From: a virus
Lineage: Duplodnaviria > Caudoviricetes
Virus record (IMG/VR): IMGVR_UViG_3300025536_000016
Location: 1-63,299 of that record
Strand: one strand, 5' to 3'
Length of the DNA stretch: 63,299 bases
The translations under genes and the position numbers were made by a program. Below the pieces are notes generated by a model that saw only the letters and a list, made by a program, of their open reading frames with translations, had not been told where the DNA came from and made no database searches. Below are positions 16,267-60,406 of the stretch, piece by piece. Every line of letters starts with the position of its first letter. Position 1 is the first letter of the stretch.

Positions 16267-16320
16267 GACCGAAACTCCCTCCTCTGGGAGTCATGGAGTT
16301 AATCTCCATCTGATGAGGTC
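16267..16320 (+). ncRNA. Type II hammerhead ribozyme HH1 (predicted cleavage after 16292)
   Basis: GACC-GAAA-CTCCC/GGGAG-TC^-ATGGAG/CTCCAT-CTGATGA-GGTC: full core and three stems. Confidence 0.92.
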
Positions 16321-16347
16321 AGATTAAAAAATCGAGGATAAAAGAAA

Positions 16348-16782
16348 ATGGAAAAAATTCAGAAAACACGGATTGAAAAAGTCTCGGATTTGAAACCGGG
16401 CGACGTTATTTACAAATTTGAAAGATGGTCTTATGAAAAGAATCTCAAAGCTGAGAAACCTTTACCGGTCATCAATTTTCATCGAATCTTTGTTATCTCA
16501 AATGTTCATTTATCGGAGGGAGGAAAATGGCTTTTCGATTATCGGAAACACGACCGGCTTTCTTCATCGAACGGAGACCACTTGAAAGTCATCAGGGCTT
16601 TGGCGGAAAGAAAAGTTTGTGAGGGCGGAACATTCGGGTGCAATCAGAGAATTCCGGAAAAGGGCGAATTCTTTCATTCGGAAATCTGGAGACTGGACAC
16701 GATTCGGAATTCGGTTTCTCCCTCTTATAATTATTCCGGAGTGATTCTTTACAAAAATCCGGCTTATGATTTGATGCATTAA
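16348..16782 (+). CDS. Hypothetical protein
   Basis: Consensus leader directly after HH1. Confidence 0.75.
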   Translation: MEKIQKTRIEKVSDLKPGDVIYKFERWSYEKNLKAEKPLPVINFHRIFVISNVHLSEGGKWLFDYRKHDRLSSSNGDHLKVIRALAERKVCEGGTFGCNQRIPEKGEFFHSEIWRLDTIRNSVSPSYNYSGVILYKNPAYDLMH

Positions 16783-16805
16783 TCAGGGAGAAAGAATTTT
16801 AATAA

Positions 16806-17075
16806 ATGAGGATAGAAGATTTCAAAAAATCGAAAGAATACAGGGACTACATAGTCCCTCAACATCCGTATTATGAATGCCTCATCTCTCTTAATCGAGA
16901 TGGGTTTTTATGTTATAAATTAATAGTGATTATTAAGAGGGGTTATAATTCGTATTCGATTTATAATCTCTTAAATAGTCCTGATGGTTCAATCCAGATT
17001 AAGCACGATTCTTCCTCGATGACGGATTTGGACGTGTTTAAGTTTCTATTGAATCTCTTTTCAAAAGAGGGTTAA
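16806..17075 (+). CDS. Hypothetical protein
   Basis: ORF within gene run. Confidence 0.6.
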   Translation: MRIEDFKKSKEYRDYIVPQHPYYECLISLNRDGFLCYKLIVIIKRGYNSYSIYNLLNSPDGSIQIKHDSSSMTDLDVFKFLLNLFSKEG

Positions 17076-17080
17076 AAATT

Positions 17081-17314
17081 ATGCCAAATTTAGAAGAAAT
17101 CAAGAATTTGAAATTAAAAACAATTCTGGAAAGTCTTTCCGGAACAGAATGTTTTTCATGTGGTTCGAGGAAGGGGGCGAAGATGAGTCACTGCAGACCC
17201 TGCTACTTTGCGCTTCCTCCGGAAATGAGAAAGAATCTTTATAATCGAGTCGGTTCGGGTTATGAGGAAGCTTTCAAAGAATCCCTTATCTTTCTGGAGG
17301 AAAGGAAGTCATGA
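17081..17314 (+). CDS. Small Zn-finger protein
   Basis: CFSC...CRPCYFALPPEMR. Confidence 0.65.
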   Translation: MPNLEEIKNLKLKTILESLSGTECFSCGSRKGAKMSHCRPCYFALPPEMRKNLYNRVGSGYEEAFKESLIFLEERKS

Positions 17315-17718
17315 AGATAGGCTTTACTTCGCCCAGAGAGGGGGTTTCCTCCGTTCAGATTCGGACTTTAATCCGATTACTCGGATTGTTCGATTTGAAA
17401 GAGGGAGACGAAGTTCACCACGGCTGCTGTATCGGAGGAGATGAGAAGATTCATGAGCTCATCAGAGAATATTATCCGGATGTTTCGATTATTGGGCATC
17501 CTCCGATATTGACGAAATTCATTTCCCAGATAACAGATTTCGACGAGCTCCGGCTTCCTCTGGATTTCCTCCATCGAAACAAGGAAATCGTAAATGAAAC
17601 GGATATTTTAATCGCCCTTCCATCCGGCCCCGAAGTAATTCGTTCCGGAACATGGGCAACTATTCGGTATGCTCTGAAAGGTAGCAAATCAGTTTATATC
17701 ATCAGAGAGGAAAATTAA
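17311..17718 (+). CDS. SLOG-superfamily (DprA/YspA-like) protein
   Basis: KIGFTS, HHGCCIGGD, RNKEIVNETDILIA, SGTWATIRYA. Confidence 0.75.
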   Translation: MKIGFTSPREGVSSVQIRTLIRLLGLFDLKEGDEVHHGCCIGGDEKIHELIREYYPDVSIIGHPPILTKFISQITDFDELRLPLDFLHRNKEIVNETDILIALPSGPEVIRSGTWATIRYALKGSKSVYIIREEN

Positions 17719-17720
17719 TA

Positions 17721-18068
17721 ATGGTTGATAAAATAGCCAAGATAGATAAAAAAGATGAAATTGATTCTCAATCCATCCAGAACATTGAAAATCTCATCAA
17801 AGTTGTCCTATTCACGGGAAAATATCTGAAATTCCGGATTGAATATCATCGAATCGAAGATACACGGGACTACTTCATTTTTACTTTATTCAGGAACGAA
17901 AAGCCGTGGAGAGTAATCGGAGGAGTTTCCGAAACTTTATATTATTTTCTCGGAGCTTATGAGCAGGAATACAATGAAACGGTTGATGTGAATTCCCTCA
18001 AAAAGAGAATGGATAATTATTCCCTGAATCATCAAATTAACTGGTCATCCGAGAAAGTATTTTATTAA
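17721..18068 (+). CDS. Hypothetical protein
   Basis: ORF within gene run. Confidence 0.6.
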   Translation: MVDKIAKIDKKDEIDSQSIQNIENLIKVVLFTGKYLKFRIEYHRIEDTRDYFIFTLFRNEKPWRVIGGVSETLYYFLGAYEQEYNETVDVNSLKKRMDNYSLNHQINWSSEKVFY

Positions 18069-18080
18069 AAGATTAAAAGA

Positions 18081-18536
18081 ATGAAAAGATTAATATTCTT
18101 ACAAAATACATATTCGGAAAAATATCAGGGAAAGGAATTTCCCAGAGACGAATGGTGGAGAGGATTCAAAAAAGGATTGGCTTTCCGGAATCTCGAAAAG
18201 ATATTTGCGATAAATCTCCGGAGAGACATGGTCTGGAATCTCACACCGATTGCGGGAAAGGATTCCTCCTCGATTCTTCCTCCGGATTTTCATTATATCG
18301 AGGACGCAATTATTAAACATAGACCAAAATATGTTGTCGCTTGTGGTCTGAAAGCAATCTCTGCTCTGGATTTGGTTCTGGATAAAAATCTTTTAGGAAT
18401 CACGCATCCGAGCTACAGATTCAATACTGAGGATTATTTTCTCCAATTGAGATTTTTGGTCAATCTCAATCTGGAGGGAAAATATAAGGCTTTTCCCGTC
18501 AAAGGGCAAAAGGAATTAAAACTAACGCAGCTATAA
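18081..18536 (+). CDS. Uracil-DNA-glycosylase-like fold protein
   Basis: IFLQN, WNLTP, PKYVVACG, ITHPS in the order seen in the UDG superfamily. Confidence 0.5.
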   Translation: MKRLIFLQNTYSEKYQGKEFPRDEWWRGFKKGLAFRNLEKIFAINLRRDMVWNLTPIAGKDSSSILPPDFHYIEDAIIKHRPKYVVACGLKAISALDLVLDKNLLGITHPSYRFNTEDYFLQLRFLVNLNLEGKYKAFPVKGQKELKLTQL

Positions 18537-18559
18537 ATCAATAAATCGAGGATAAAAGA

Positions 18560-19180
18560 ATGATTGTAAAATATGGAGATTCAGAGGATAGTCCGGAAAG
18601 AGACGCCCTCATATTGGAGATATTACCGAAAGAGACTTTGATTTCAAAAATCATTGAGCCTCAGATTGAGGAACATCTTTTTGAAGCATTGGCAGAATGT
18701 GTAATGGGAGAACTTCAAATCTTTAGAATGTACCCGAAAAAGATTGGTTCTCAACCCATTGAGGAGAAAATTAAAACATTCGACCCGACGAATAACGAGA
18801 CCTGTTTCATGGGAAAAGGATTCAAATCAAATGATGAGCTTCAGGATGTAGAACTGGTGAAATATCGAAAAGCAATTGGCACCATTCCGCATTATGTCTG
18901 GGGAAACGTCACGCTCCTCGAAATCTGGGGAGGAGACCATTTTGAAGATTATCCGGATATGGTCATTGGCGCGTTTGAATATGCTTTCAGATTGAGAGAC
19001 GAGTGCCCGAAAATAAAATTCTACACGAATCCTCTTTTCAAGAATGAGAAATCAAAAGAGTTCAAATTATCCCAAAAACAAAAGGATGAAAAAGAGTTTC
19101 TCGATGATTTACTGGCAAGAGCTCTGGTATATGGTGTGAAAAGTGTCGAACAGGCTCGGAGAGATAGAAAGAGGAGATAA
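18560..19180 (+). CDS. Hypothetical protein
   Basis: Consensus leader, 206 aa. Confidence 0.75.
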   Translation: MIVKYGDSEDSPERDALILEILPKETLISKIIEPQIEEHLFEALAECVMGELQIFRMYPKKIGSQPIEEKIKTFDPTNNETCFMGKGFKSNDELQDVELVKYRKAIGTIPHYVWGNVTLLEIWGGDHFEDYPDMVIGAFEYAFRLRDECPKIKFYTNPLFKNEKSKEFKLSQKQKDEKEFLDDLLARALVYGVKSVEQARRDRKRR

Positions 19181-19184
19181 TAAA

Positions 19185-20063
19185 ATGGGTTGGGCAAAAA
19201 GAAATCGAAATAAAATCTCTCCGGAAATGAAGCGTAAAATTCTCGGAGAAACAATCAACATCATTTATGATAAAATCCCTAAGGTTAAATGCCAGGGGCA
19301 CTGTCATCCCTTCTGTTCCGCAATCGCAATGGAACCTATCGAGAAAGAGCTCATCGAAGAAAAACACGGTTCTTTCCCTGATGGATATGAATTCCTCGAT
19401 GGAGGAGTAAGGTGCGGAAGTTTAACTTCGGATAATAAATGTTCAATCTATGATAAGCGACCTTTGATTTGTAGATTATACGGCGCAACAAAAACAATGA
19501 TGAGCTGCCCGTTAAATTGTGAAGTCGAGGGAGAACAACTCGATGTCGAGGAAGTGAATCGTTTATTTATCGAAATGAAGTTTCTCAATCTGGAATATTA
19601 TTTCCCGAAAAGAGCAGAAGAATTAATGTCCCTCGTCAATTCCGGAAAGGGTGTTGATTTGGAAAAATATTGTGGAGTCCATCTCTTTAATGTTCCGGAG
19701 GAGTTATGGCGAGATGATATGACGGAAAAGAGTGAACACCGGAAAATCCGGAAAACTCTCGAATCGAAAGCCGGTAGGAAATTGACCGAGAAAGATTTCG
19801 AGCTCCATCAGTTCAAAAAGAAAATAAAGATATATTCGGAGATAAAAAACATTCTGGATAATCCCAATGTTTCAGGGAATCAACAAATCAATCTTTTTAA
19901 TCTCGATGGATGGAAAAAGGATAGAGGAGATAAACCACAAAAGATTGATGATATTCAATCATTCTTCAAAAGTGATTTAATTAAATTGAGTGTTCCGGAA
20001 TTATGGAAACTTCTTTTCGATGAGGATATAAAAGATATTAATCAGGAAGTTTCAGGAATATAA
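19185..20063 (+). CDS. YkgJ-family cysteine-cluster (Zn/Fe-chelating) protein
   Basis: CQGHCHPFC...CGSL...CSIYDKRPLICRLY. Confidence 0.75.
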   Translation: MGWAKRNRNKISPEMKRKILGETINIIYDKIPKVKCQGHCHPFCSAIAMEPIEKELIEEKHGSFPDGYEFLDGGVRCGSLTSDNKCSIYDKRPLICRLYGATKTMMSCPLNCEVEGEQLDVEEVNRLFIEMKFLNLEYYFPKRAEELMSLVNSGKGVDLEKYCGVHLFNVPEELWRDDMTEKSEHRKIRKTLESKAGRKLTEKDFELHQFKKKIKIYSEIKNILDNPNVSGNQQINLFNLDGWKKDRGDKPQKIDDIQSFFKSDLIKLSVPELWKLLFDEDIKDINQEVSGI

Positions 20064-20070
20064 AAATCTT

Positions 20071-20571
20071 ATGAATGAAGAAACAGAAGTAGATTCACAA
20101 GCGATTGAAGAAATAGAAGAATTAAAAATTGATATTCTTCCTCCGGAGAAACCGAAAAAGGTAAAGGGAAACCTAAAGGATAAAAAGACGAGCAAAGGTA
20201 AACCGACTCCGAAGCATATAATCGCTGCAATCATTGGGGCATATCTCTCCGGAAAGTATCAATCGCAACTCGAAATCGCGGACGCCGTAGGGACATCAAT
20301 CTCGAATGTAGAAAACACAATCTCCTCGATTCCGAAAGAATATATTATTCTCAAAGATGAGGCGGTCAATCAGAGAATAGCTTTGAAAGTTGTTGAATTT
20401 ATCGAGGAGGGCTTTGAATCATTGAAACATCTTGATAATCATTTCCGGAATGAAGCATGGTTGATGAATCAGGACGCAGAACAACTCGGAAAGCTTTACG
20501 GAATCAAGGCTGATAAGATACGAATGATTATGGAAGCAATCGAAAGAGCCAATCGTTCCGGAGGAGAGTAA
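20071..20571 (+). CDS. HTH protein (candidate terminase small subunit or regulator)
   Basis: SQLEIADAVGTSISNV helix-turn-helix followed by helical region. Confidence 0.5.
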   Translation: MNEETEVDSQAIEEIEELKIDILPPEKPKKVKGNLKDKKTSKGKPTPKHIIAAIIGAYLSGKYQSQLEIADAVGTSISNVENTISSIPKEYIILKDEAVNQRIALKVVEFIEEGFESLKHLDNHFRNEAWLMNQDAEQLGKLYGIKADKIRMIMEAIERANRSGGE

Positions 20572-20572
20572 A

Positions 20573-20920
20573 ATGTCAGATATTAATCCAGAGAGAAAAT
20601 ATTTTACAGATACGGAAATTTTGAATTATCTCCTCGATTGGATGAGGAGAAATCAATCAGAACCATTCGTTTATGGGCACAGATTAGGTTCTCAGTTAAT
20701 TAAGGTTGGAAGGATGAGAGAGGGAATCAATCTTGAATTATGGAAAGAACATCAGAAAATCATGAAAGAGGTCGAAGAAGCTCAACAAAGAGAAGATATT
20801 GCCAATTTCGTGAAATTTCCTCATTCGATTCAATTGTGTGAATATTGTGGAGGATTTGAAAGGCATAAACCCAAGTGTCCTCGCTTAAAAGAATTAATGG
20901 CTTCAAAGGATGGTAAATAA
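20573..20920 (+). CDS. Hypothetical protein
   Basis: CEYCGG...HKPKCP motif. Confidence 0.6.
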   Translation: MSDINPERKYFTDTEILNYLLDWMRRNQSEPFVYGHRLGSQLIKVGRMREGINLELWKEHQKIMKEVEEAQQREDIANFVKFPHSIQLCEYCGGFERHKPKCPRLKELMASKDGK

Positions 20921-21137
20921 ACATCATGATAAATGATAAGGACTTGAAGATAAAAGACGATTAGGCTCGATTGTAGAGAGGAAGGAATGAAGATTTTAGA
21001 CAGATTAATATTGATTTTTAGGATTTTGGAGAATTTATTCAAATTTCTCTATGATTTTTTCTGGGGCTTGAGTGAAATCATTCTCCAGATTAAAACTTAT
21101 CTGAATCTTAGGAATCCGGAGGATAACCATAAAAAGC

Positions 21138-21374
21138 ATGATAGTTAAATGCACGAATTGTGGAAAAGAGGAGAATGTAACAGATGCTTGGATGGGCGCC
21201 GCCCTTGAATTCGAGCATAATTGGAAGATTCTCCCAGATTTGGAGTTCGCCACTTGCGGAGATTGCAATAAATCTCTGGATGATATAAATAAATTGAGGG
21301 AAATATGCGAAAATATCGGAAAGGAATCAAACAACCTCCAGTTAAATCTCTCAGTTGGGACGAATGGCTCCTGA
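21138..21374 (+). CDS. Small Zn-ribbon protein
   Basis: CTNC...CGDC; GGAGGAT upstream. Confidence 0.65.
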   Translation: MIVKCTNCGKEENVTDAWMGAALEFEHNWKILPDLEFATCGDCNKSLDDINKLREICENIGKESNNLQLNLSVGTNGS

Positions 21375-21504
21375 TAATCATCGCTTTATTGATGTTTATT
21401 TCAGGATTTATTAGAATTTGATACAATATCTCATCTGTGAAAGATATTGAAAAATCAACCACTTAGTTAAAAGGTGCCACCGGAGAGTATCAGAGGAGTG
21501 AAAC

Positions 21505-21756
21505 ATGGAGAAAGTGCAGAAAAGCCCATTCGATTCAAAGGAAGATTATTTGAAATTCATGAGTGAATTTCTTGGAGTATCTGAGGAGAATTCAAAGCTC
21601 AGAATGGAGGATATTAAATTCTTTGAGGAGAGAGGATTTAATTTCAGGGAATCAATAAACCGCTGTCTCGATATGAACTACGGTTTTACAAAGACAGAAT
21701 ATTTTCTAAATCTCCCAGAGGAAAAACAGAATAGTGATAAATTAATTTTAAGATAG
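21505..21756 (+). CDS. Hypothetical protein
   Basis: GAGGAG RBS. Confidence 0.65.
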   Translation: MEKVQKSPFDSKEDYLKFMSEFLGVSEENSKLRMEDIKFFEERGFNFRESINRCLDMNYGFTKTEYFLNLPEEKQNSDKLILR

Positions 21757-21768
21757 GAGGATGAATAA

Positions 21769-21939
21769 ATGTTAAAAAGTCAGGTTAGAAATTATGCAGC
21801 AGCAAATGGTGTTGTTGCGAAATATTCAGGGAGGAGTCGCCAATGGCATTTCTCGAAAAACCGAATCCAAGTCTCCAGAGGGCACAAGGATTTAACACAA
21901 AAGAAATTGGATAATAGTTTCCAAAAATTCAATCAATAA
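21769..21939 (+). CDS. Small basic hypothetical protein (56 aa; not in ORF track)
   Basis: AGGAGG RBS; MLKSQVRNYAAANGVVAKYSG... Confidence 0.55.
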   Translation: MLKSQVRNYAAANGVVAKYSGRSRQWHFSKNRIQVSRGHKDLTQKKLDNSFQKFNQ

Positions 21940-21953
21940 TCGAGGGAAAATCA

Positions 21954-22181
21954 ATGAAAAATAAAATCAAGGAATATAGTGCTTTGATTCATAAAATCAG
22001 GAAGAAAATAAATGATTTTACGAAATCGGTATATCCTGAATATAACGAAATCTTTCATCAGGTTTTCGCGGAGTTTGATTGCCCGACCTCTCCGATAAAA
22101 TTATGTATTTTTGAATTATCGGAGAAAGGTATTCCTGAAAGGTGTCTGTTCTGCCATCTTTCCGTAAATAGAAATAAATAG
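21954..22181 (+). CDS. Hypothetical Cys-containing protein
   Basis: DCPTSPIKLC...CLFC. Confidence 0.6.
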   Translation: MKNKIKEYSALIHKIRKKINDFTKSVYPEYNEIFHQVFAEFDCPTSPIKLCIFELSEKGIPERCLFCHLSVNRNK

Positions 22182-22195
22182 AGAGGATAATAATT

Positions 22196-22492
22196 ATGCA
22201 TCCAGTAACTCCGGTCTTTCCGGATAATATTTGTAAACATCCCAAAAAGGGCGAAGAATCATTCTGTCCTGATTGCGGAGAGGTTTTTGTCGCAGAGAAG
22301 CAGGAGGAATATCAAACACTCCCTGTGATTTATATCGAGGGAGGAAACTCCTGCATCTCGCGTTGGGAATTATCAGAGGAGGAGATAAAGCACATTATCG
22401 AAACGAAATCAATTTATCTCATTCAATCGAATTTCGGTAAAGCAATCGCTCCAATGATGATTTCTTGCTTTCCGGATGGGAGGGAAATATAA
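22196..22492 (+). CDS. Hypothetical phage protein
   Basis: AEKQEEYQTLP...SRWELSEEE; GAGGAT RBS. Confidence 0.7.
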   Translation: MHPVTPVFPDNICKHPKKGEESFCPDCGEVFVAEKQEEYQTLPVIYIEGGNSCISRWELSEEEIKHIIETKSIYLIQSNFGKAIAPMMISCFPDGREI

Positions 22493-22494
22493 TC

Positions 22495-23388
22495 ATGATT
22501 CAGGAAATCAATTCAGAACAACTAAATCTTAACCCGAATCGGCTTTATAATAATCCGACCGGATGGTTCAAAGATGGAGATACATATAGCCCGATTCCGG
22601 CTTATTCAAAAGTCCTTGATTCAGGGATTTATTTCATCCAGATAAACGAGGGTGCTTTAGCCTTCACAAAAACGGAATTATCTACGGATGAGATATTCGA
22701 GATTGGTAACACAATTTCAGATAAGGTTTTAATTTCCCTCGATAATTTCTGGGCGAAGGAATCCGAAATCAAAAAGGGAGGAATCACTTATAAGCGAGGC
22801 TTCCTCTTTCATGGGAAACCGGGCTGTGGTAAGACGACGCTCCTAAATCAAATCTCCCAACATTTAATCCAGAGGGACGGAATAGTTATTGTTGGTTCGG
22901 AGCCAAATCTAACAATTGAGGCTTTAACCCAATTGAGGAGAATCGAACCGACGAGAAAGCTCGCTGTATTATGGGAGGACTTTGAAGGATTCCTGAATGG
23001 GTTCGGCGAAGAAAATCTTCTCTCGCTCTTCGATGGTCAACGGCAAGTTGATAATGTGATTCATATCTGCACGACGAATTATCTGGATGATATTCCTCAC
23101 AGATTCAAATCCCGCCCGAGCCGAATTGATGAAGTCATCGAAATTGAGCCTCCGACCGAGGAAGCCCGATTGATTTTCTTGGCTAAATTATTCAAGAAAT
23201 ATGATAAAGAATTCTTTGATGGAGATTATTGGCTGAAGGATACGGAAGGGATGCCATTCGCTCATATCAAGGAACTTTTTATCTCCGTGAAAATCCTCGA
23301 TTATGATTACAAAACCACTCTGGAAAGATTGAAATCAAATATCAATCAGAATGATTCAGACGGGAGCGGAGTGTTCGGAAAGGATTAA
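22495..23388 (+). CDS. AAA+ ATPase (BCS1/FtsH-like single domain)
   Basis: GFLFHGKPGCGKT, LWEDFE, TTNY, RPSRID. Confidence 0.88.
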   Translation: MIQEINSEQLNLNPNRLYNNPTGWFKDGDTYSPIPAYSKVLDSGIYFIQINEGALAFTKTELSTDEIFEIGNTISDKVLISLDNFWAKESEIKKGGITYKRGFLFHGKPGCGKTTLLNQISQHLIQRDGIVIVGSEPNLTIEALTQLRRIEPTRKLAVLWEDFEGFLNGFGEENLLSLFDGQRQVDNVIHICTTNYLDDIPHRFKSRPSRIDEVIEIEPPTEEARLIFLAKLFKKYDKEFFDGDYWLKDTEGMPFAHIKELFISVKILDYDYKTTLERLKSNINQNDSDGSGVFGKD

Positions 23389-23416
23389 TTATTAAATCTG
23401 AGGAGAGATAAAAATA

Positions 23417-23623
23417 ATGTTCAACGGGAGCCCAGCTCAACAAAAATGTGATGAAACCTTAGAGCGATTAAAAGTCGCTCTAAGGGAATATGAGGAGGAG
23501 GGCAATCTTTTCGCAAAGAGTGTCACTATCCGGAGATTTGGGAATGGTAATTTGATGGATTTCGTAATTAATTTTACATCTGATAAAGAATCCCTGAAAG
23601 ACCAAATCAGTAAAAAGAAATGA
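23417..23623 (+). CDS. Hypothetical protein
   Basis: GAGGAG RBS; overlaps terminase start. Confidence 0.6.
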   Translation: MFNGSPAQQKCDETLERLKVALREYEEEGNLFAKSVTIRRFGNGNLMDFVINFTSDKESLKDQISKKK

Positions 23624-25386: not shown

Positions 25387-25392
25387 AATAAA

Positions 25393-31828: not shown

Positions 31829-32021
31829 TAGTTTACAAATAAGATTTTATCAGTTATTTTATCTTTAGATGCCACTTGTCGAGCAAGCCCGACATCTAAA
31901 AATCCTGATAAGTTGTAGGGCAACAAAATCAGAAAGGGAATTTTCGCTATTTGAAATATATCTCTTTTTCTTTTGTCATTTCGTGTAGGGCACTAAATAA
32001 AATCTGAGGAGAAATTGATAT

Positions 32022-48076: not shown

Positions 48077-48153
48077 AGGAACTTTTTATCCTGATTCTCC
48101 ATGAAACAGTTGTATCAGATATGAAACACAAAAATGTGAAATTTTAACAGAAG

Positions 48154-51944: not shown

Positions 51945-51945
51945 T

Positions 51946-52785: not shown

Positions 52786-52820
52786 GGAATTTTGATAATA
52801 AATGGTAGGTAAAATAAATT

Positions 52821-53672
52821 ATGTCAGCACAAACAGTTACGAGAGCTTTAATCAATGATACTGATGCGAATTTCAGATTATGGGGCAAAGCCATTTCTGA
52901 CCAGTTCGCAGCGGGAGGGATGATTCAAACCCCCGATACGGGACAGATAAATTGGGCGACGGTTCTCACTCCGGCGGCAGTTAGCACATATCAGGGATAT
53001 GAGATTTGGCGCTCGAATGACGCCGGAGGAAGTCTCGTTAACTGGTATATGAAAATCCAGTATGGAAGTAATTCAACAGCAGCAAACCAACCTCGTGTCT
53101 CGATTCAATTCGGCTGGGGAAGTAACGGTTCCGGAACATTGACGGGAACGACTAACACTGCAATGACTCCTCAATTGAATACGACCGCGACAACGACTCT
53201 GATGAATTGCAATTTATCAGTCGGCACCGGTTGGCACATTATGGTTCTCGGAACTGTTACGAATAATAATATGTTCTTTTCCGTCGAGAGAACACGAGAT
53301 TCTGCGAATGCTTTCCAGAATGAATTATTAATCGTTGCCCAAGATGCGAACACTTGGAAATCTCAAGTTTTGACTCAAACCGTCGCCTATCCTACGGAGT
53401 CGACAACGGCTGCTGCGATTATTCCTACTGCCGCAAATTCCGTTCAGGGAGGAGTAGTCGGATTAGGGCTTCAATTCGGAAATCGAGGAGGATTTACAAA
53501 TCCCTCGATGAATCTTTTTGGAGTCAATGCAAGTCAATTAGGTTCTGCTCAAACTCAATTGACAATCAATACTTATGGAGCTAATCATAATTATATTTTG
53601 AATCCTCCGAGCATTACCGGTCTCCAATTCGCCGGTATTTCGACAACGATGATTTTACAGAGGTTTGAATAA
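52821..53672 (+). CDS. Putative tail fibre / receptor-binding protein, paralogue 2
   Basis: Same shared blocks as the previous gene. Confidence 0.55.
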   Translation: MSAQTVTRALINDTDANFRLWGKAISDQFAAGGMIQTPDTGQINWATVLTPAAVSTYQGYEIWRSNDAGGSLVNWYMKIQYGSNSTAANQPRVSIQFGWGSNGSGTLTGTTNTAMTPQLNTTATTTLMNCNLSVGTGWHIMVLGTVTNNNMFFSVERTRDSANAFQNELLIVAQDANTWKSQVLTQTVAYPTESTTAAAIIPTAANSVQGGVVGLGLQFGNRGGFTNPSMNLFGVNASQLGSAQTQLTINTYGANHNYILNPPSITGLQFAGISTTMILQRFE

Positions 53673-54022
53673 TGCCAACGGGACAAGATATTCCGACAAC
53701 TCAATTCATGGCTTCTGCGAAAGTGGCGGTTTTCAATGAGTCAATAAGTTATCTGGGATATTACCAGACATATCAGCTCGGAGTCGTAATTCCTCAATTG
53801 ACTAATATTCGAGGGACATTTCAATTCGGAGTTGTGATTCCTCAATTGAATTATAATTATGTTGCTTATGCACTCGGAGTTTATCTTGGTTGGTTCCCTT
53901 ATCCTGATGCTCCCGTTGATTTGATTATTGATGCAATCGTTACTAATAATCCATTGACGACGGGCGAGGAGGTCATTTTAACACGTGGTCAGGATTTCCC
54001 GCGCGGAGACGGAAATCGTTAA
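53672..54022 (+). CDS. Hypothetical virion-associated protein
   Basis: Internal repeat QLGVVIPQL/QFGVVIPQL. Confidence 0.55.
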   Translation: MPTGQDIPTTQFMASAKVAVFNESISYLGYYQTYQLGVVIPQLTNIRGTFQFGVVIPQLNYNYVAYALGVYLGWFPYPDAPVDLIIDAIVTNNPLTTGEEVILTRGQDFPRGDGNR

Positions 54023-54105
54023 ATTTGAATTATTTGAGAAATCAAATATAATCAAGAAGTCAAATTATAATTTGATAAATTAATTTAGAGGAGAATTAAA
54101 AAAGT

Positions 54106-54441
54106 ATGGCGGAAGTTTCAACAGAAGGAAAGACGAAACAGGCTGAGGCTCAAGCATCCTCATCCGGAGGGAATCAGGGTTCAGGGAATGCGAAAGTCGT
54201 TGACCCGAAAGTTGCAGGAGCAGAAGCTTCGGCAAAGAAAGGTTCGGATTCAAAGCCGGTTGATTATGATGAGTATGTCGCGAATCTGAATTCGGAAAAG
54301 AAAGTCGAGGGAGGAGAACAGGTTATCGCTTCCGGTCTCGATAAAGGGCGTCTCGTCAAAGATGACGGCTCGATTGATTATGAATCTCCGAGTCATTTGG
54401 AAAAGCGATTAGGCGGCGAGTTCGACACAATTCCTGAATAG
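54106..54441 (+). CDS. Hypothetical hydrophilic protein
   Basis: GAGGAG RBS. Confidence 0.65.
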   Translation: MAEVSTEGKTKQAEAQASSSGGNQGSGNAKVVDPKVAGAEASAKKGSDSKPVDYDEYVANLNSEKKVEGGEQVIASGLDKGRLVKDDGSIDYESPSHLEKRLGGEFDTIPE

Positions 54442-54515
54442 GAATAATTTTTCATTTGAGGAATCCGGAAAAAATTATCTGGATTCCTCAAACCATCAAA
54501 AGAGAGGATAATTTC

Positions 54516-55265
54516 ATGATTAAAGTTGGTTCCATAGGAAAGGATGTCATTCAATGGCAAGAGTTCCTAAAATTAAGCGGATATAATATTGGTTCATTGG
54601 ATGGGATTTTCGGCTCGAAAGTCGAATCCGCAACAAAAGAGTGGCAAAAAAAGAATGGATTAGAAGCCGATGGAATAGTTGGTTCTAACACGCTCCAGAA
54701 AGCCGGTCTTTCCGTCGTTGCTTCTCCCTCTCCGATAAATTCAAAATATTATCCTCCGAAGCCGGATTTTGCTTATCCGAATTCCACTCGGGTTCGTCAG
54801 TTATTCGGGAATTTCAGTTTCCGGAATAATAAAGGAAAAATTGAAATCCTCGATAACTGGGCAGGAAAGAATGTCGTTAAAGTTCGGATTCCTGAATTAA
54901 TCGGAGTTTATGGAGCTCCGAAAGATGGAATGATTGAGTTTCATAAATTGGGAGAGAATCAGCTCAAAGGGGCTTTCTCTGAAATTGGAGAAAAAGGTCT
55001 TGCCGATAGAATCATTTCATTTGGCGGAAGCTTTTATCCTCGATTCATCAGGGGTTCAGTAACAACTCTCTCCAATCATTCATGGGCGACGGCTTTGGAT
55101 TTGAATGCTCCGGAAAATTGGCTGGGTGAACGTCCCGCGTCAATCGGAGAAAAAGGTTCCCTCCTCGAATTGGTTCCAATCTTCAATAAGTGGGGCTTTT
55201 TCTGGGGCGGACATTATAACAAGCGTCTCGACGGGATGCATTTTGAATTGGCTAAATTACTATAA
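54516..55265 (+). CDS. Endolysin: peptidoglycan-binding domain plus M15 peptidase
   Basis: DGIFGSKVESATKEWQ..NGLEADGIVG; R...SNHSWATALD...DGMHFE. Confidence 0.92.
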   Translation: MIKVGSIGKDVIQWQEFLKLSGYNIGSLDGIFGSKVESATKEWQKKNGLEADGIVGSNTLQKAGLSVVASPSPINSKYYPPKPDFAYPNSTRVRQLFGNFSFRNNKGKIEILDNWAGKNVVKVRIPELIGVYGAPKDGMIEFHKLGENQLKGAFSEIGEKGLADRIISFGGSFYPRFIRGSVTTLSNHSWATALDLNAPENWLGERPASIGEKGSLLELVPIFNKWGFFWGGHYNKRLDGMHFELAKLL

Positions 55266-55281
55266 GAGAGGAAATAAAATC

Positions 55282-55560
55282 ATGGATGGATTAAAAGATA
55301 TTGGCATCAATCTCGGCACGACAATCGGAAAACAAGTTCTCGTTTCCGAATTGAGAAAGAAAGGAAGAAAGCTTGTCGAAAAGGACACGAATAAAACTGG
55401 TTCTGATGATTTCGGAGGGCAAACTCTTCTCGCGGTCGCTGATGCCGTCGAGGCAATCGAATTTACGGAGAATCCGAAATCCCTGATGAATATCGGCAGA
55501 GCTTTTGAAGCAGCAGGTAAAAGGATTCAGGAAGAAGCGAAGAAAGCCGGCGTCCAATAA
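55282..55560 (+). CDS. Hypothetical protein
   Basis: ATG 55282 after GAGGA. Confidence 0.6.
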   Translation: MDGLKDIGINLGTTIGKQVLVSELRKKGRKLVEKDTNKTGSDDFGGQTLLAVADAVEAIEFTENPKSLMNIGRAFEAAGKRIQEEAKKAGVQ

Positions 55561-55604
55561 AAATTTTTCGGTATTTTCAAATGTTTAGAGGAGGAACGAT
55601 TTAT

Positions 55605-55847
55605 ATGTCATTCAATTTATCTTTTACGGGCTCAAAGAAAGGAGTCCTGAAAGCAATCGAGGATGCTCCGGACAACGGGCAACCTCAAGTTCCGGAAGTG
55701 AAAGCACTTCTCAAATCGGAAGTCGAACAGATGCCCGAGAATTCCTATAACAATGGGATTTCAATCACAGCCTCTGGTCATGCGGATAATCAAAATCGCT
55801 ATATGAATATTGAAATCCGGATGGTCAAGCTTTCAATGGAGGAATAA
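55605..55847 (+). CDS. Hypothetical protein
   Basis: ATG 55605 after GAGGAGG. Confidence 0.6.
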   Translation: MSFNLSFTGSKKGVLKAIEDAPDNGQPQVPEVKALLKSEVEQMPENSYNNGISITASGHADNQNRYMNIEIRMVKLSMEE

Positions 55848-55852
55848 AATCC

Positions 55853-56218
55853 GTGCAGGATAATCAAGTTCTCTACACTCTCAGGAACATTCCGCCGTGG
55901 CTTCCGGTCTTGTTCCTGATTGTCCTTTTTGTGATTCTTTATATCATTTATAAAGACCCATTCTTTAAGGATATAATCAGCGGGACTTTAATCGTCGCAT
56001 TTTTGACTTCAATCGGAATTAAATTAGCTCCGACACAGAGTCCGAAACTCGACACTCAATCTGGAGATATTAACATAAATCCGATTCCCAAAAATCCGGC
56101 AACGGAATCATCTCCAGAATCAAAACCTTTGAATGATTTATCAGAGGAAGAAATCCGAAATCTTCACCACGGATTGGAAAATCTGGAAGATAAAGGAAAT
56201 GAATCAGGAACGGAATAA
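55853..56218 (+). CDS. Putative holin (2 TM helices)
   Basis: Two hydrophobic helices near the endolysin. Confidence 0.5.
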   Translation: MQDNQVLYTLRNIPPWLPVLFLIVLFVILYIIYKDPFFKDIISGTLIVAFLTSIGIKLAPTQSPKLDTQSGDININPIPKNPATESSPESKPLNDLSEEEIRNLHHGLENLEDKGNESGTE

Positions 56219-56726
56219 AATACGATTGTGCTCTATTAGAAGGCAATGCAAGGGGGTTGTGGTTATGAATGAGGAAGAACTTATCAGATTGATTTTTAGA
56301 TTTTTGTGGACCATGTTAATTTTCGGTTGCGCAATTCTATTAAGAAAAATAGTTAATCTTTTGGACAATAAAATTGTCTCCTCGATTTTCGGCTTCTTCT
56401 TTCGATGTCTCGGAGTATATGGAGGGATGATGCTCATCGCATGGATTTTTGATGTTTACTTTGGATTCAAGGTGTTTATCATCTCTCCTATCGTTAATTT
56501 TATTTGCTGGTCGTTTCCTTTTGTTTATCTCTCATATCTTTATTTGAATCTGAAAAATCAACCAAAAGAAATTCAAAATACAGATGGAGATGAAATCCCA
56601 AACCCCAAATATTTAAGCAAGGAAATGATTACATTTCACGCGGAGGAATTAATTAAAGCCCTCCAGCTTCAGGATTCGATTATCACGAAAATAAAACGGG
56701 ATATGAAAATGCGTTTTTTGAGGTAG
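56199..56726 (+). CDS. Multi-pass membrane protein (lysis region)
   Basis: Three hydrophobic segments; start uncertain (56199 or 56265). Confidence 0.55.
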   Translation: MNQERNKIRLCSIRRQCKGVVVMNEEELIRLIFRFLWTMLIFGCAILLRKIVNLLDNKIVSSIFGFFFRCLGVYGGMMLIAWIFDVYFGFKVFIISPIVNFICWSFPFVYLSYLYLNLKNQPKEIQNTDGDEIPNPKYLSKEMITFHAEELIKALQLQDSIITKIKRDMKMRFLR

Positions 56727-56736
56727 AATTTCTATT

Positions 56737-57246
56737 ATGACAGCGCTCCTGTTATTTTTATTTCAAGATAGTAGCTCTTTGAGCTCAACTCAGGAATCTA
56801 TGATTGAAAAAATCTTTATTCTCGTGGCTACTGCTGCAATAACTGGAGTTTCCACTTATCTCGCCACTCGTAGGAAAAATGAAGCTGATATTCAGAAGCT
56901 CGTTGCGGAAACAATCAAGACTTATGTCGAAGCAATGAATCAGATTCAGCAAATCAATAAGGAACTTCGTGCCTCCATCAAAGAACTAATGACGGATGTC
57001 GAAACTTGGCATAAATCCTATTTGAAAACGGATGAATTATTATCCGAAGCGACGAGAGGATTGTCAGATTGTTTAGATTCAAAGGATTGTCCCGAATGTG
57101 AGGAACTTTTAACGGAAGCTCTTGATTCCCTCCTCCAGATTCCGCCCCTTTTGAAAAATGTTCCGGATTCAGAACATTTTGCTTCCTCCATCATTAAGCT
57201 AAGCACAGAGATTTCCAGAAAAATAAATCGGAATCTCCCAGAATAA
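56737..57246 (+). CDS. Membrane-anchored coiled-coil protein (holin/spanin-like)
   Basis: TM IFILVATAAITGVSTYLA then RRK and coiled coil. Confidence 0.55.
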   Translation: MTALLLFLFQDSSSLSSTQESMIEKIFILVATAAITGVSTYLATRRKNEADIQKLVAETIKTYVEAMNQIQQINKELRASIKELMTDVETWHKSYLKTDELLSEATRGLSDCLDSKDCPECEELLTEALDSLLQIPPLLKNVPDSEHFASSIIKLSTEISRKINRNLPE

Positions 57247-57250
57247 AAAA

Positions 57251-57303
57251 TGTCAAAATTTAACATTTTCTTTCTTGACATGCTCAAGGAAATATGAGAG
57301 TAT
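57251..57303 (+). promoter_or_regulatory. Operator plus putative early promoter
   Basis: TGTCA-aaatt-TAACA, TTGACA (57275), TG-n-GAGTAT (57298). Confidence 0.7.
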
Positions 57304-57353
57304 GTATTTCAAGGGAATAACCCGAGACTAAAATTAAATCGAGGATAAAGAAA

Positions 57354-57659
57354 ATGAAAGCAAACACACACATCAACAACTTGGTAAATTTCGGACATCC
57401 GGTTCAGGTTTTAATCGACTTTTCGAGAATGAATAAAACGGAATTAAAATCTTTCCTGAAAGATTTGGAAGTCGACATGACGGGAATCAAGGGAGATAAA
57501 TCTTTGGCACTGGCGAGAATCACTTTTCGGGATTTCGTTGCTCAAAGTGGTAAATCAATTGATGGATGGGATTTCTCGGCTGACTTGGCAATCCTGAATG
57601 ATGAATTTGAATCCTATTCCGCGAGATTCGATTATATGGCTTCTCGGAAATACCGGTAA
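57354..57659 (+). CDS. Hypothetical protein
   Basis: Consensus leader. Confidence 0.75.
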   Translation: MKANTHINNLVNFGHPVQVLIDFSRMNKTELKSFLKDLEVDMTGIKGDKSLALARITFRDFVAQSGKSIDGWDFSADLAILNDEFESYSARFDYMASRKYR

Positions 57660-57711
57660 GAACGAAACCTCCCTCCGGAGGTCATGGAGTTAATCTCCAT
57701 CTGATGAGTTC
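57660..57711 (+). ncRNA. Type II hammerhead ribozyme HH2 (predicted cleavage after 57683)
   Basis: GAAC-GAAA-CCTCC/GGAGG-TC^-ATGGAG/CTCCAT-CTGATGA-GTTC. Confidence 0.92.
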
Positions 57712-57739
57712 AGAACCAAATAAATCGAGGATAAAGAAT

Positions 57740-59269
57740 ATGTGCTTAGAAAATCAATTAATCAAAGATTTCAATAAAGGAATCAAAGTTTCGACCCCGT
57801 TATTTTCCATCAATTGCTTCGACCCTGAAATGCTCCTGAAAAATCTTTCGGAAAAATTAGTTCCTATCATCAACGATTTCGGCTCGAAGGAAAGACCCAT
57901 GATTCAATGGGATTGTGTTCGAGGATGGCAGGCAAGAAATAAATCCGCAATCGAAGCAATCGGAATGGCGCTGAATGGCGCGGAATTGGAGGACACATTC
58001 AATCCAGTCTCCTCCCTGAAATTGGCTCAGAATCTGCCGGAGGGTTCGATTCTCTTTCTTTTGAATGGTCATCTTTATTTCAAGGATGATTTTTCTTTTC
58101 TTCAAGCGTTCTGGAATCTCCGAGACACGTTCAAGGCAACGAATCGAGCCTGTGTGATTCTGACGAACTCTTTTATCCTTCCTCTGGAAATCCAGAACGA
58201 CGTTCTCATACTCGACGAGAAGTTACCTGATGAGGAGGATTTGAGGAATATCATCAAGGAATTGGCGGAGGAAAACGAAATCAAATTATCTGAGGAAGAT
58301 ATTGAAAAAGGAGTCGTTGCTCTGAAAGGATTGAGCGCTTTTCCTGCGGAACAATCCGTCGCCCTCTCTCTGGGAAAATCCGGACTGGATATTGAAAATC
58401 TTTGGAGCCGGAAAATCCAGAAAATCAATGAAACTCCCGGTCTCTCGGTTCACAAAGACGGTGCGAAATTTGAAAATCTCGGAGGATTGGAAGAAATCAA
58501 GAATCGGTTCTCTCGAATCATCAAAGGAAAAAAATCTCCAAAAGTGATTGTCTGGATTGATGAAATCGAAAAGGCAATGGCGGGAGCGGGAACGGAATCC
58601 TCCGGAACAACTATGGACCAGCTCGGAGTCCTCCTCAATGAATTCGTAGAAAAGGATTATTCGGGTTCGGTCTTCGTAGGAGTTCCGGGCGCCGCTAAAT
58701 CCGCCCTCGCGAAAGCAATCGGAAATGAGGCTGAAGTGATAACCATCAAATTAGACCTCGGAGAAATGAAAGGACAATTCGTTGGATTATCGGAGGAAAG
58801 AATCCGGACGGGAATGAAAGTTATTGAAGCAGTCGGAGGATTCGGAGGGGCTTTCTTTGTGGCAACCTCGAATGACATCTCCTCGATTAAACCGGAACTC
58901 CTCCGGAGATTCAAAAAAGGAGTCTGGTTCTTCGATTTACCGACACGAGAAGAAAGAGAAGTCATCTGGAAAATTTATTTGAAAAAATATGAATTCGACA
59001 TCAACCTCGTGAAATCAATCAGATTCGACGAAGGTTGGACGGGAGCGGAAATCGAGAACTGCTGCATGACGGCATGGGAGGAAGAAATTTCCATCGAGGA
59101 AGCTTCAAAATCAATCATTCCAGTTTCGGTCTCCGGAAAGGAACAGGTCGAAAGATTGAGGAACGAGGCGAATGGAAAATATTCCTCGACGAATTATGCG
59201 GGGGTTTATAATTCCTCAATGAATGATGTGAAATTCATCCAGCCGAAACGACGAATCGCGACGGACTAA
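57740..59269 (+). CDS. Ycf46-like AAA+ ATPase with Walker B preceding Walker A
   Basis: LGGLEEIK...IVWIDEIEKAMAG...FVGVPGAAKS...FFVATSN...FFDLP...WTGAEIE. Confidence 0.85.
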   Translation: MCLENQLIKDFNKGIKVSTPLFSINCFDPEMLLKNLSEKLVPIINDFGSKERPMIQWDCVRGWQARNKSAIEAIGMALNGAELEDTFNPVSSLKLAQNLPEGSILFLLNGHLYFKDDFSFLQAFWNLRDTFKATNRACVILTNSFILPLEIQNDVLILDEKLPDEEDLRNIIKELAEENEIKLSEEDIEKGVVALKGLSAFPAEQSVALSLGKSGLDIENLWSRKIQKINETPGLSVHKDGAKFENLGGLEEIKNRFSRIIKGKKSPKVIVWIDEIEKAMAGAGTESSGTTMDQLGVLLNEFVEKDYSGSVFVGVPGAAKSALAKAIGNEAEVITIKLDLGEMKGQFVGLSEERIRTGMKVIEAVGGFGGAFFVATSNDISSIKPELLRRFKKGVWFFDLPTREEREVIWKIYLKKYEFDINLVKSIRFDEGWTGAEIENCCMTAWEEEISIEEASKSIIPVSVSGKEQVERLRNEANGKYSSTNYAGVYNSSMNDVKFIQPKRRIATD

Positions 59270-59289
59270 GAATCCGGATTCATTCAGGG

Positions 59290-59319
59290 AGAGAGGAGGG
59301 AATTTTCTCTCCTCTTTTT
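59290..59319 (+). terminator. Intrinsic terminator
   Basis: AGAGGAG...CTCCTCT followed by TTTT. Confidence 0.6.
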
Positions 59320-59355
59320 CCTTTCCCGATACTTGAAAAAATTATTTTCAAAAAA

Positions 59356-59407
59356 TGTGAAATTTTTACATTTTTCTATTGACAAGTAGATTCGACTAGT
59401 TTAGTAT
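59356..59407 (+). promoter_or_regulatory. Operator plus putative early promoter
   Basis: TGTGA-aattt-TTACA, TTGACA (59379), 17 bp, TAGTAT (59402). Confidence 0.75.
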
Positions 59408-59465
59408 TGATTTCAACGAGGAGAAATCCTCAGAGAAAAATTAAAAAAAATCGAGGATAAAGAAA

Positions 59466-59975
59466 ATGGAAAACACGAACGAAATCAAATCAACCGAAAC
59501 AACAAAGGAAATCATCTTTTTAATGGGTTTACCCGCAGCAGGAAAATCGACCGAGGGTCAGAAAGCTTTTGGTTCAACACACACCTTCATTGATTGCGAC
59601 GAAATCAAAAAATCTCATCCTGATTATAATCCGGCAGAAGCTTTCAAAGTTCACGAATGGTCGAAAATGGAAGAAGAAAAAGTTTGGCTGAAAGCCTTGA
59701 CGACGGACGGACAATTTGTCCTCGATGGAACGGGAACGAACGCAGAAAAAATGGTGCGAAGAATCAATCAGGCGAAGGCGATGGGATTCGAGACAAAATT
59801 ATTCTACGTGACATGCACTCTGGAAACCTCCATCCGACGGGCTCTCAAACGGGTTCGCCAGGTTCCTCTCGAAATGATTCAGGAAAAAGCCCTGAACATC
59901 GCGACTTCCTTTGAAATCGTTGCAAAATATGTTGACACGATTCAGGTGGTCGACAACAACACCGACACCAAATAA
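59466..59975 (+). CDS. P-loop kinase (zeta-toxin / AAA_33 / PNK-like)
   Basis: FLMGLPAAGKST, IDCDEIK, FVLDGTG, RALKR.R. Confidence 0.8.
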   Translation: MENTNEIKSTETTKEIIFLMGLPAAGKSTEGQKAFGSTHTFIDCDEIKKSHPDYNPAEAFKVHEWSKMEEEKVWLKALTTDGQFVLDGTGTNAEKMVRRINQAKAMGFETKLFYVTCTLETSIRRALKRVRQVPLEMIQEKALNIATSFEIVAKYVDTIQVVDNNTDTK

Positions 59976-59981
59976 TCCGGA

Positions 59982-60044
59982 GAACGAAACTCCGGAGGGA
60001 GAACCCCTCCGGAGTCATGGATTAAGAATCCATCTGATGAGTTC
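59982..60044 (+). ncRNA. Type II hammerhead ribozyme HH3 (predicted cleavage after 60016)
   Basis: GAAC-GAAA-CTCCGGAGGG/CCCTCCGGAG-TC^-ATGGATT/AATCCAT-CTGATGA-GTTC. Confidence 0.92.
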
Positions 60045-60073
60045 AGGAAAATTAAAAATCGAGGATAAAGAAA

Positions 60074-60355
60074 ATGAAATCGGGCGAAGCAATCGGAATG
60101 GTCAAAGTTGGAAGGATGACTTCTGAGGGAAAATTTCAACCAGCAGAAGATACGGATGGCGGATGGATTGGAAGTGGTCAATTCGCAATCGAATTGGGAA
60201 ATAAAAATTATTATCTTGATTATTTTCATGTCGAGGATGTTTTTAGAAGAACGGCTAATGCAGTTGTTCCGAGATTGAAGAAACACGCAGGATTCGTTCT
60301 GACCTCGATTTCCATCGGTCAAACTCGGGGCTGGGTATTTATCATCTGCGATTAG
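60074..60355 (+). CDS. Hypothetical protein flanked by two hammerheads
   Basis: Consensus leader; stop overlaps HH4. Confidence 0.75.
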   Translation: MKSGEAIGMVKVGRMTSEGKFQPAEDTDGGWIGSGQFAIELGNKNYYLDYFHVEDVFRRTANAVVPRLKKHAGFVLTSISIGQTRGWVFIICD

Positions 60356-60406
60356 AACGAAACCCTCTCCGGAGGGTCTTGGAGTGAATCTCCAACTGAT
60401 GAGTTC
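60355..60406 (+). ncRNA. Type II hammerhead ribozyme HH4 (predicted cleavage after 60378)
   Basis: GAAC-GAAA-CCCTC/GAGGG-TC^-TTGGAG/CTCCAA-CTGATGA-GTTC. Confidence 0.92.

Follow-up and report, generated by a model that had tools for sequence, protein, structure and literature searches.

The first natural type II hammerhead ribozymes were reported by Perreault et al. (2011; PMC3088659), who described this permutation as very common in bacteria. In prophages, multiple copies often flank single genes or short gene blocks, the gene identities not being constant, and for such clustered hammerheads it was proposed that long phage transcripts are cut into gene-length mRNAs (Perreault et al., 2011; PMC3088659). 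The same report raised regulated cleavage as a possibility for the phage hammerheads, considered spliced or circular products and detected none (data not shown), found a pseudoknot between loop I and the 3' tail to be critical for fast cleavage in the cases tested, and recorded in vivo cleavage of an Agrobacterium tumefaciens fragment transcribed from a clone in E. coli (Perreault et al., 2011; PMC3088659). In Desulfovibrio vulgaris, three hammerheads of type II were later found to cleave both in vivo and in vitro by cyPhyRNA-seq (PMC8782182). A 2019 review repeated the processing idea, considered what self-cleaving ribozymes do in bacteria to be largely elusive and called for more work; a 2026 paper on RNA viruses set aside its matches in DNA bacteriophages as already described. 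Here, we examine four type II hammerheads (HH1–HH4) that lie between consecutive genes of a phage in the viral metagenome record IMGVR_UViG_3300025536_000016, the whole of which (63,299 nucleotides, nt; 40% G+C; 85 predicted genes) was analyzed and is referred to below as the window.

A descriptor scan of both strands of the window, requiring GAA, an A15.1-U16.1 pair, a non-G residue 17, CUGANGA and three helices, returned five matches, all on the plus strand, of which four were strong and one weak; across 100 first-order reshuffles of the window, the mean was 0.15 matches and the maximum one. The four strong matches (Table 1) share the type II permutation—that is, a stem II arm is followed by GAAA, the stem III hairpin, C17, the stem I hairpin, CUGAUGA and the second stem II arm, so that loops close off stems I and III, and stem II is open. 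All core residues are intact in every copy (CUGAUGA, GAA, the A-U pair and C17 in a GUC context), the core-adjacent pairs are standard and the stems contain no mispairs, in agreement with the acceptance rules of Perreault et al. (2011; PMC3088659).

An initial annotation of the window had listed four complete type II hammerheads with GAAA, GUC and CUGAUGA cores, compensatory changes in the stems, and the start positions and 5'-hydroxyl (5'-OH) residues that appear in Table 1; our descriptor scan and sequence reading arrive at the same motifs, the same cores and the same residues. A covariance model made from the four copies and run on the window with its filters off scored them at 76–94 bits, as follows from its construction, and the next-best match in the window reached 17.8 bits (E value 0.12). 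The weak fifth descriptor match (31950–32013; stems of 3/3/4 base pairs, bp; a CUGAGGA core over a ribosome-binding site) lies at the chance level of 0.15 per window and went unseen by the covariance model even at an E value of 10, and it was rejected; with it absent and the next-best match so low, the window holds exactly four copies. When HH1–HH4 are aligned at 13 pairs, each of the 52 cells holds a standard pair, and four of the 13 pairs are changed on both sides, which bears out the compensatory changes. On this evidence, we take HH1–HH4 to be real type II hammerheads and new members of a class known since 2011.

Table 1. Hammerheads, promoter modules and flanking genes in the window (stems in the order II/III/I).
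Feature	Positions	Strand	Remarks
HH1, type II hammerhead	16267–16320	+	stems 4/6/6 bp; cleavage predicted after C16292; 5'-OH residue 16293
HH2, type II hammerhead	57660–57711	+	stems 4/6/6 bp; cleavage predicted after C57683; 5'-OH residue 57684
HH3, type II hammerhead	59982–60044	+	stems 4/11/7 bp; cleavage predicted after C60016; 5'-OH residue 60017
HH4, type II hammerhead	60355–60406	+	stems 4/7/6 bp; cleavage predicted after C60378; 5'-OH residue 60379
Promoter module 1	15878–15978	+	palindrome, TTGACA at 15902–15907, -10-like box, 5' hairpin, ribosome-binding site
First gene of operon 1, 94 amino acids (aa)	15979–16263	+	no family match; 5' of HH1
Gene 3' of HH1, 144 aa	16348–16782	+	no family match
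Promoter module 2	57250–57353	+	palindrome, TTGACA at 57275–57280, 5' hairpin, ribosome-binding site
First gene of operon 2, 101 aa	57354–57659	+	no family match; 5' of HH2
AAA ATPase, 509 aa	57740–59269	+	Pfam PF00004, 3.3e-12; 3' of HH2
Terminator-like hairpin, then T run	59287–59313	+	closes operon 2
Promoter module 3	59355–59465	+	palindrome, TTGACA-17-TAGTAT at 59379–59407, 5' hairpin, ribosome-binding site
First gene of operon 3, P-loop kinase of Zeta_toxin/AAA_33 type, 169 aa	59466–59975	+	Pfam PF06414, 9.7e-15; 5' of HH3
Gene between HH3 and HH4, 93 aa	60074–60355	+	no family match
Gene 3' of HH4, 147 aa	60443–60886	+	weak DUF1257 match under cutoff

Each hammerhead is fitted closely between two genes, and most of these flanking genes have no family match. 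In the table of open reading frames (ORFs), the distance from the end of the upstream stop codon to the start of the hammerhead is 3, 0, 6 and -1 nt for HH1 to HH4, respectively, so that HH2 begins directly after a stop codon and the first base of HH4 is the last base of one, and the distance from the end of the hammerhead to the next ATG is 27, 28, 29 and 36 nt. The initial annotation had likewise placed the starts near stop codons and the ends shortly before the next gene.

This layout is not peculiar to the window. A pattern combining the core, GUC and a CAG tail found at least 118 stretches in a collection of viral contigs, a sample biased towards hammerheads like HH1–HH4, and a stricter descriptor applied to these 118 loci identified 149 hammerheads in 107 of them, or 141 in 100 loci after exact duplicates were dropped. 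With ORFs of at least 40 codons considered, 104 of the 141 begin between -2 and +3 nt relative to where a stop codon ends, and 53 of these share its last base; as controls, a stop codon stands within -2 to +12 nt in 16 of the 141 cases on the opposite strand and at 107 of 2820 random positions on the same strand. On the downstream side, a start codon of such an ORF follows within 0–40 nt in 133 of the 141, most commonly at 21–28 nt (random positions: 1071 of 2820). The dimensions of the element are also narrow: stem II has 4 bp in 131 of the 141, stem I spans 6–9 bp, stem III spans 5–15 bp, and residue 17 is C in 139. At least two hammerheads occur in 28 of the listed loci. The densest among the matches listed is a 67.6-kilobase (kb) viral contig (L008), in which eight type II hammerheads, each at a gene junction, are packed into about 4.3 kb of the minus strand (approximately 3368–7635).

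The helices are maintained by compensatory change across this sample. Running the covariance model on the window and 99 of the 118 loci gave 119 matches at an E value of 0.001 or lower, and in the alignment of the 116 distinct sequences, which is fitted to the model, all 1506 cells pair, with 564 double-sided changes as compared with 172 in shuffles and at most 67 when the pairing partner was slid. Eleven of the 13 pairs show compensatory changes, and the covariation score is 0.881 (0.177 in shuffles). When the 85 proteins of the window were compared with the 118 hammerhead loci, only remote matches emerged, one in each of six loci at 21–34% identity, and no close relative was among them. A near-identical hammerhead is nonetheless present in several of these loci (L018, L033, L037, L048, L067, L068 and L077), with a common UUAAU loop I and CAGA tail and with stems I and II that differ by compensatory changes. 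Judged from these sequences, the layout of HH1–HH4 is one that recurs across the phage loci sampled.

Within the window, the hammerheads are tied to a repeated promoter module. The 17-nt palindrome ATGTnAAAnTTTnACAT occurs six times, always on the plus strand, as compared with 0.89 occurrences expected, and homologous modules are found at five of the six sites (12563, 15878, 57250, 59355 and 61619), with a variant at 48134. Each module consists of the palindrome, a TTGACA-like box 7–8 nt further on, a -10-like box after another 17 nt, a 5' hairpin that covaries between modules, and a shared ribosome-binding site, and the five together look like the targets of one regulator acting over five operons. 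HH1, HH2 and HH3 each follow the first gene of a module's operon (modules at 15878, 57250 and 59355), as the initial annotation had stated for three of the hammerheads behind operator-linked promoters, whereas HH4 comes after gene two of operon 3. The window is, in this respect, an unusually clean case, with three operons that have the same promoter, operator and 5' hairpin and are each split by a hammerhead after the first gene. Operon 2 is the simplest of them, a two-gene unit made up of the promoter, the 5' hairpin, the 101-aa gene, HH2, the AAA ATPase gene and a terminator-like hairpin that closes it; with this layout, both cleavage products would bear hairpins at both ends. The covarying hairpins that would begin the primary transcripts of all five modules suggest that the phage relies on hairpins at the 5' ends of its mRNAs.

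We consider it fairly probable that HH1–HH4 are active type II hammerheads within sigma-70-type operon mRNAs and that they give rise to separate messages with independent decay and translation. Under this scheme, a hammerhead would be transcribed as part of the phage's sigma-70-type operon mRNA, would fold once about 55 nt of it had been made, and would cut itself after C17, at a point 25–35 nt beyond the upstream gene's stop codon. Stem II, short at 4 bp, would then melt and the two halves would part. The upstream mRNA would keep its stop codon and terminate in a 2',3'-cyclic phosphate one base past the closed hairpin of stem III. The downstream mRNA would open with the closed hairpin of stem I, whose first paired base would bear the 5'-OH, and continue with a leader of about 40 nt carrying the ribosome-binding site. 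One transcription unit would in this way become separate messages, uncoupled in decay and translation. From topology, only the type II permutation would be expected to leave closed hairpins flush with both new ends while requiring no more than a short helix to be melted. Cleavage in the cell, and its effects on message stability and expression, are what we infer from the observed motifs, their strand and placement, their covariation and the generality of the layout.

RiboJ is an engineered insulator that combines a satellite-RNA hammerhead with an added hairpin and is placed after a promoter. The phage elements resemble it in function only, in that a self-cleaving hammerhead with a hairpin would provide a fixed 5' end for the downstream gene whatever lies upstream, and the geometry is also RiboJ-like, the predicted 5'-OH residue being the first paired base of stem I. 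In the phage, however, stem I itself serves as the hairpin and the element has its place between cistrons, and the likeness does not amount to family membership.

The closest described systems are the prophage hammerheads of Perreault et al. (2011; PMC3088659; Rfam family RF02276), which have the same core and permutation, occur as clustered copies flanking phage genes, and gave rise to the same processing proposal; the loop I/3' tail pseudoknot described for them is possible for HH1. The elements in the window differ in that stem II has 4 bp, as opposed to the Rfam consensus of a shorter stem II accompanied by a pseudoknot tail, in that the pseudoknot is not evident in HH2 and HH3, and in the link of the copies to a defined promoter and operator module. 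Placement flush against stop codons is also unmentioned in the main text of that report, in which the term "stop codon" does not occur (0 occurrences). The type II hammerheads of D. vulgaris similarly have hypothetical and phage-like genes nearby, and two of the three are close neighbors, but these are chromosomal or prophage copies in a cultured bacterium with mapped ends (PMC8782182), whereas the ends for HH1–HH4 are predicted. HHphage of the haloviruses HF1 and HF2 is located a few nucleotides 5' of the start codon of an early gene, and a mapped 5' end lies no more than 3 nt from its cleavage site; it differs in having a variant core that needs high salt, in belonging to an archaeal virus, and in standing at the start of a transcript instead of between cistrons (Perreault et al., 2011; PMC3088659). 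The glmS ribozyme also alters the fate of a downstream message through self-cleavage within a bacterial mRNA and a 5'-OH end (2019 review), but it has another fold, depends on a metabolite, resides in a 5' untranslated region and destabilizes its message.

In the literature outside subscription journals and supplementary files, we found no paper on flush placement at stop codons or on a measured effect of a phage hammerhead on mRNA stability. What is added here is a quantitative layout across phages together with a clean candidate system. The regularities described above (a flush stop codon, a 4-bp stem II, hairpins at both ends and approximately 21–28 nt to the start codon) make a vague idea testable, namely that type II hammerheads form boundaries between cistrons and cap the two new RNA ends with no protein involved. 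If true, this would account for the type II permutation being common in phages, and it would provide natural insulator parts.

Several observations weigh against this interpretation. The first gene is followed by a hammerhead in only three of the five homologous modules, the other two having none. Synteny in related phages was among the checks named in the initial annotation, and beside homologues of the AAA ATPase the hammerhead position is not conserved. This protein has 465 homologues at an E value of 1e-10 or lower, and an alignment of 36 of the 120 listed led to 361 relatives among the viral contigs, and 80 loci from these were retained; at 36–45% identity, none of the 80 has a hammerhead at the ATPase junction by the covariance model, a narrow model that missed a hammerhead found by Rfam in one of these loci (L125). 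Its weak matches in two of the 80 lie off the junction (L168, 28.1 bits, about 1.06 kb upstream; L145, 23.1 bits, about 0.4 kb upstream), and Rfam at its gathering threshold detected no ribozyme at the junction in the 15 of the 80 loci scanned. Two other ribozymes were seen in these loci, a type II hammerhead in L125 (351–416, 45 bits) and a twister-P5 ribozyme in L137 (218–277, 46.5 bits), each about 3.6 kb upstream of the ATPase gene; different self-cleaving classes occupy similar phage neighborhoods. As these ribozymes near ATPase homologues are sporadic and off the junction, they come and go, which agrees with the inconstant gene identities noted by Perreault et al. (2011; PMC3088659).

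Rfam, which the initial annotation had named as a check, gave a divided answer for the window, in that RF02276 (type II) is the best family for HH1, HH2 and HH4 (28.2, 27.3 and 28.6 bits) and yet all four copies fall under its gathering score of 37, leaving no match at the gathering threshold. For HH3, which has a long stem III, an RF02276 match was not listed, and a partial match to RF00008, the type III model, reached 18.2 bits. The RF02276 gathering score is the curators' cut-off for one model and not a structural criterion, and the low scores probably arise because stem II has 4 bp here as compared with the shorter stem II and pseudoknot tail of the Rfam consensus. Weak Rfam matches in 59282–59457 (Vg1 ribozyme, sraA, ylbH and others) fall in an AT-rich promoter region with scores far under thresholds, and were discarded.

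Folding of single copies adds further reservations. Stems III and I form as predicted in all four (z scores of -2.5 to -3.7; -8.3 to -22.1 kcal/mol for stem III and -4.5 to -6.4 kcal/mol for stem I), and the minimum-free-energy fold of HH1 is the full three-way junction. For HH2–HH4, however, the minimum-free-energy fold has a small CUGA/UCAG hairpin in place of the weak 4-bp stem II (57703–57715, 60036–60048 and 60398–60410), which occupies part of the core; the conserved UCAG spans the stem II arm and the tail, and such a hairpin could arise in the downstream product once cleavage has taken place or could rival the active fold before it. Just 5' of HH3, a TCCGGA palindrome (59976–59996) can pair with the first arm of stem III; this alternative hairpin, which is unused in the minimum-free-energy fold, can be expected to compete with the ribozyme fold of HH3.

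A candidate tertiary contact is clear only for HH1, whose 3' tail (16322–16327) can form a 6-bp pseudoknot with loop I, a length reached by a fraction of 0.045 of shuffled tails. HH4 can form 4 bp (0.155 of shuffled tails), and the 3 bp available to HH2 and to HH3 are no better than those of shuffled tails; in the other phage loci, 36 of the 141 hammerheads have a pseudoknot of at least 4 bp. The UUAAU loop I and CAGA tail are kept between unrelated phages while the stems covary, and this hints at some other tertiary contact. Such a contact may exist, or cleavage may be slow in some copies. RNA can also be marked for decay by a 5'-OH, as happens with the glmS ribozyme via RNase J1, and any effect of cleavage on the downstream message could thus run in either direction. 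Of the mRNA-processing role put forward in the initial annotation, the sense orientation within operons, the predicted ends flush with hairpins and the layout shared by 141 relatives hold up; the claim is weakened by the hammerhead-free modules and by the pseudoknot being clear in a single copy, and the idea is not a new one, having been the standing hypothesis for the class since 2011. For these copies, it is plausible but not new.

These same features can be read in other ways. It is unlikely, in our estimation, that the hammerheads cleave to lower or regulate expression, with one product exposed to decay (by the 5'-OH route, for example) or with cleavage tuned by terminating ribosomes, Mg2+ or alternative folds. 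A stop codon flush with stem II, as in 104 of the 141 relatives and with gaps of -1 to 6 nt in the window, means that a terminating ribosome must unfold the ribozyme, although the flush placement may merely reflect tight gene packing. The competing folds described above (the CUGA/UCAG hairpin in HH2–HH4 and the TCCGGA palindrome 5' of HH3) would suit such tuning, as would the absence of a clear pseudoknot in HH2 and HH3, which may be slow on that account, and regulated cleavage in phage hammerheads is among the possibilities raised by Perreault et al. (2011; PMC3088659). Both new ends, on the other hand, would be flush with stable hairpins and thereby the reverse of exposed, and each of the motifs is minimal (52–63 nt) and has no ligand-binding or sensor domain. 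We give still less credence to the view that the hammerheads are passengers that mark the borders of exchangeable gene cassettes, moving with the ribosome-binding site and having little effect on the phage. The genes flanking the hammerheads are unrelated to one another, a near-identical hammerhead can occur in phages with no more than remote protein matches, the ATPase junction is empty in the 80 related loci, two ribozyme classes are sporadic nearby (one hammerhead and one twister in 15 loci), and gene identities were not constant in the report of Perreault et al. (2011; PMC3088659) either. Set against this, the perfect cores and the stems kept by compensatory changes in four copies and their relatives indicate that the RNA structure is under selection, and all copies are sense-oriented in transcribed spacers. 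A passenger role is in any case compatible with one in processing, and it would become the likelier account if the idea of cistron boundaries failed.

HH3 and HH4 invite a more elaborate proposal, which we regard as highly improbable, that they excise a 362-nt RNA (predicted to span 60017–60378) that either a host ligase or the hammerhead reaction run in reverse would join into an exonuclease-proof circular mRNA. Equally improbable are its extensions, by which this RNA, with its 93-aa gene, ribosome-binding site and stop codon, would be sealed as a phage circular mRNA, phage type II pairs would be circular-mRNA cassettes, and the kinase encoded 5' of HH3 might act on the 5'-OH ends. Because the two hammerheads have the same stem II arms, the two termini of the excised RNA could come together again as a whole hammerhead, nicked at the cleavage site. 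Among the 131 hammerheads with a 4-bp stem II, to which this comparison was confined, the arms are cross-compatible in 24 of 37 neighbor pairs and in 20 of 33 when stem-loops I and III both differ, as compared with 30% of random pairs between loci; such an excess is nevertheless expected from paralogy within a genome, with only two variable pairs in stem II, and since the neighbors are evident paralogues and 13 of the 37 pairs are incompatible, cross-compatibility does not discriminate. HH1 and HH2, moreover, are single, no RNA ligase was recognized among the 40 of the 85 window gene products scanned against family libraries, the scan of 20 replication-module proteins (of 85 predicted genes) revealed neither an RNA ligase nor an end-healing enzyme, and circular or spliced products were looked for without success by Perreault et al. 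(2011; PMC3088659; data not shown). That the motifs are inactive look-alikes or chance matches, as their scores under the Rfam gathering threshold might imply, is barely credible when four strong matches are set against 0.15 per shuffled window, the cores are perfect with compensatory changes in the stems, and strand and placement are identical to those of the 141 relatives.

The kinase gene that opens operon 3 has a match to a PHROGs polynucleotide kinase family (1.1e-7), but its matches to a generic ATPase family, Zeta_toxin and AAA_33 are better, and it was therefore set aside as a candidate polynucleotide 5'-kinase; its only match in the PDB is to zeta toxin (E value 0.0017), and NCBIfam gave only shikimate-kinase and PSTK matches, all far under their cutoffs. 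Such a P-loop kinase could in principle act on RNA 5'-OH ends, but the family to which it is assigned is a generic one.

The 99% identity between bases 1–112 and 63188–63299 indicates that the genome is probably complete, despite being classed in its record as linear and 59% complete; it is probably about 63.2 kb in length and either circularly permuted or furnished with a terminal repeat. All long ORFs in the ORF table of the window are on the plus strand. The window encodes a terminase large subunit, a major head protein, a family A DNA polymerase, a sliding clamp, a DnaB-type helicase and ThyX, and no tRNA genes were found in it. Searches of viral contigs by way of the ATPase and the terminase found no close relatives, and a blastn comparison of a tail gene and the HH2 region with cultured phages gave nothing useful. 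Matches to the operator-plus-promoter pattern in three other viral contigs (L120–L122) were rejected as chance matches, as these contigs share no proteins with the window. A terminase search of genome contigs recovered no phage but this one, matched at 100% identity along 7,764 nt of a contig (L123) that belongs to a metagenome-assembled genome labeled Bacteroidetes.

A long ribosome-binding module, AAATCGAGGATAAA, is kept ahead of many genes of the window, for example at 9110, 16329, 26928, 27810, 57336 and 59448. Strong Shine-Dalgarno use of this kind and TTGACA-type promoters fit poorly with the Bacteroidetes label of the bin, and the host assignment by binning may be wrong. A second repeat of roughly 20–40 nt, with the core AAAAGACGATTAGGCTCGA, occurs just 5' of structural genes at 20950, 34827 and 48258, with a partial copy at 61327, and may be a late promoter or an RNA element. 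Finally, in addition to its ThyX-type thymidylate synthase, the phage has a second, divergent gene resembling thymidylate synthase that adjoins a possible nucleotide kinase (1291–1998, 2088–2597 and 14309–15121), a combination that could point to a modified base in the phage DNA.

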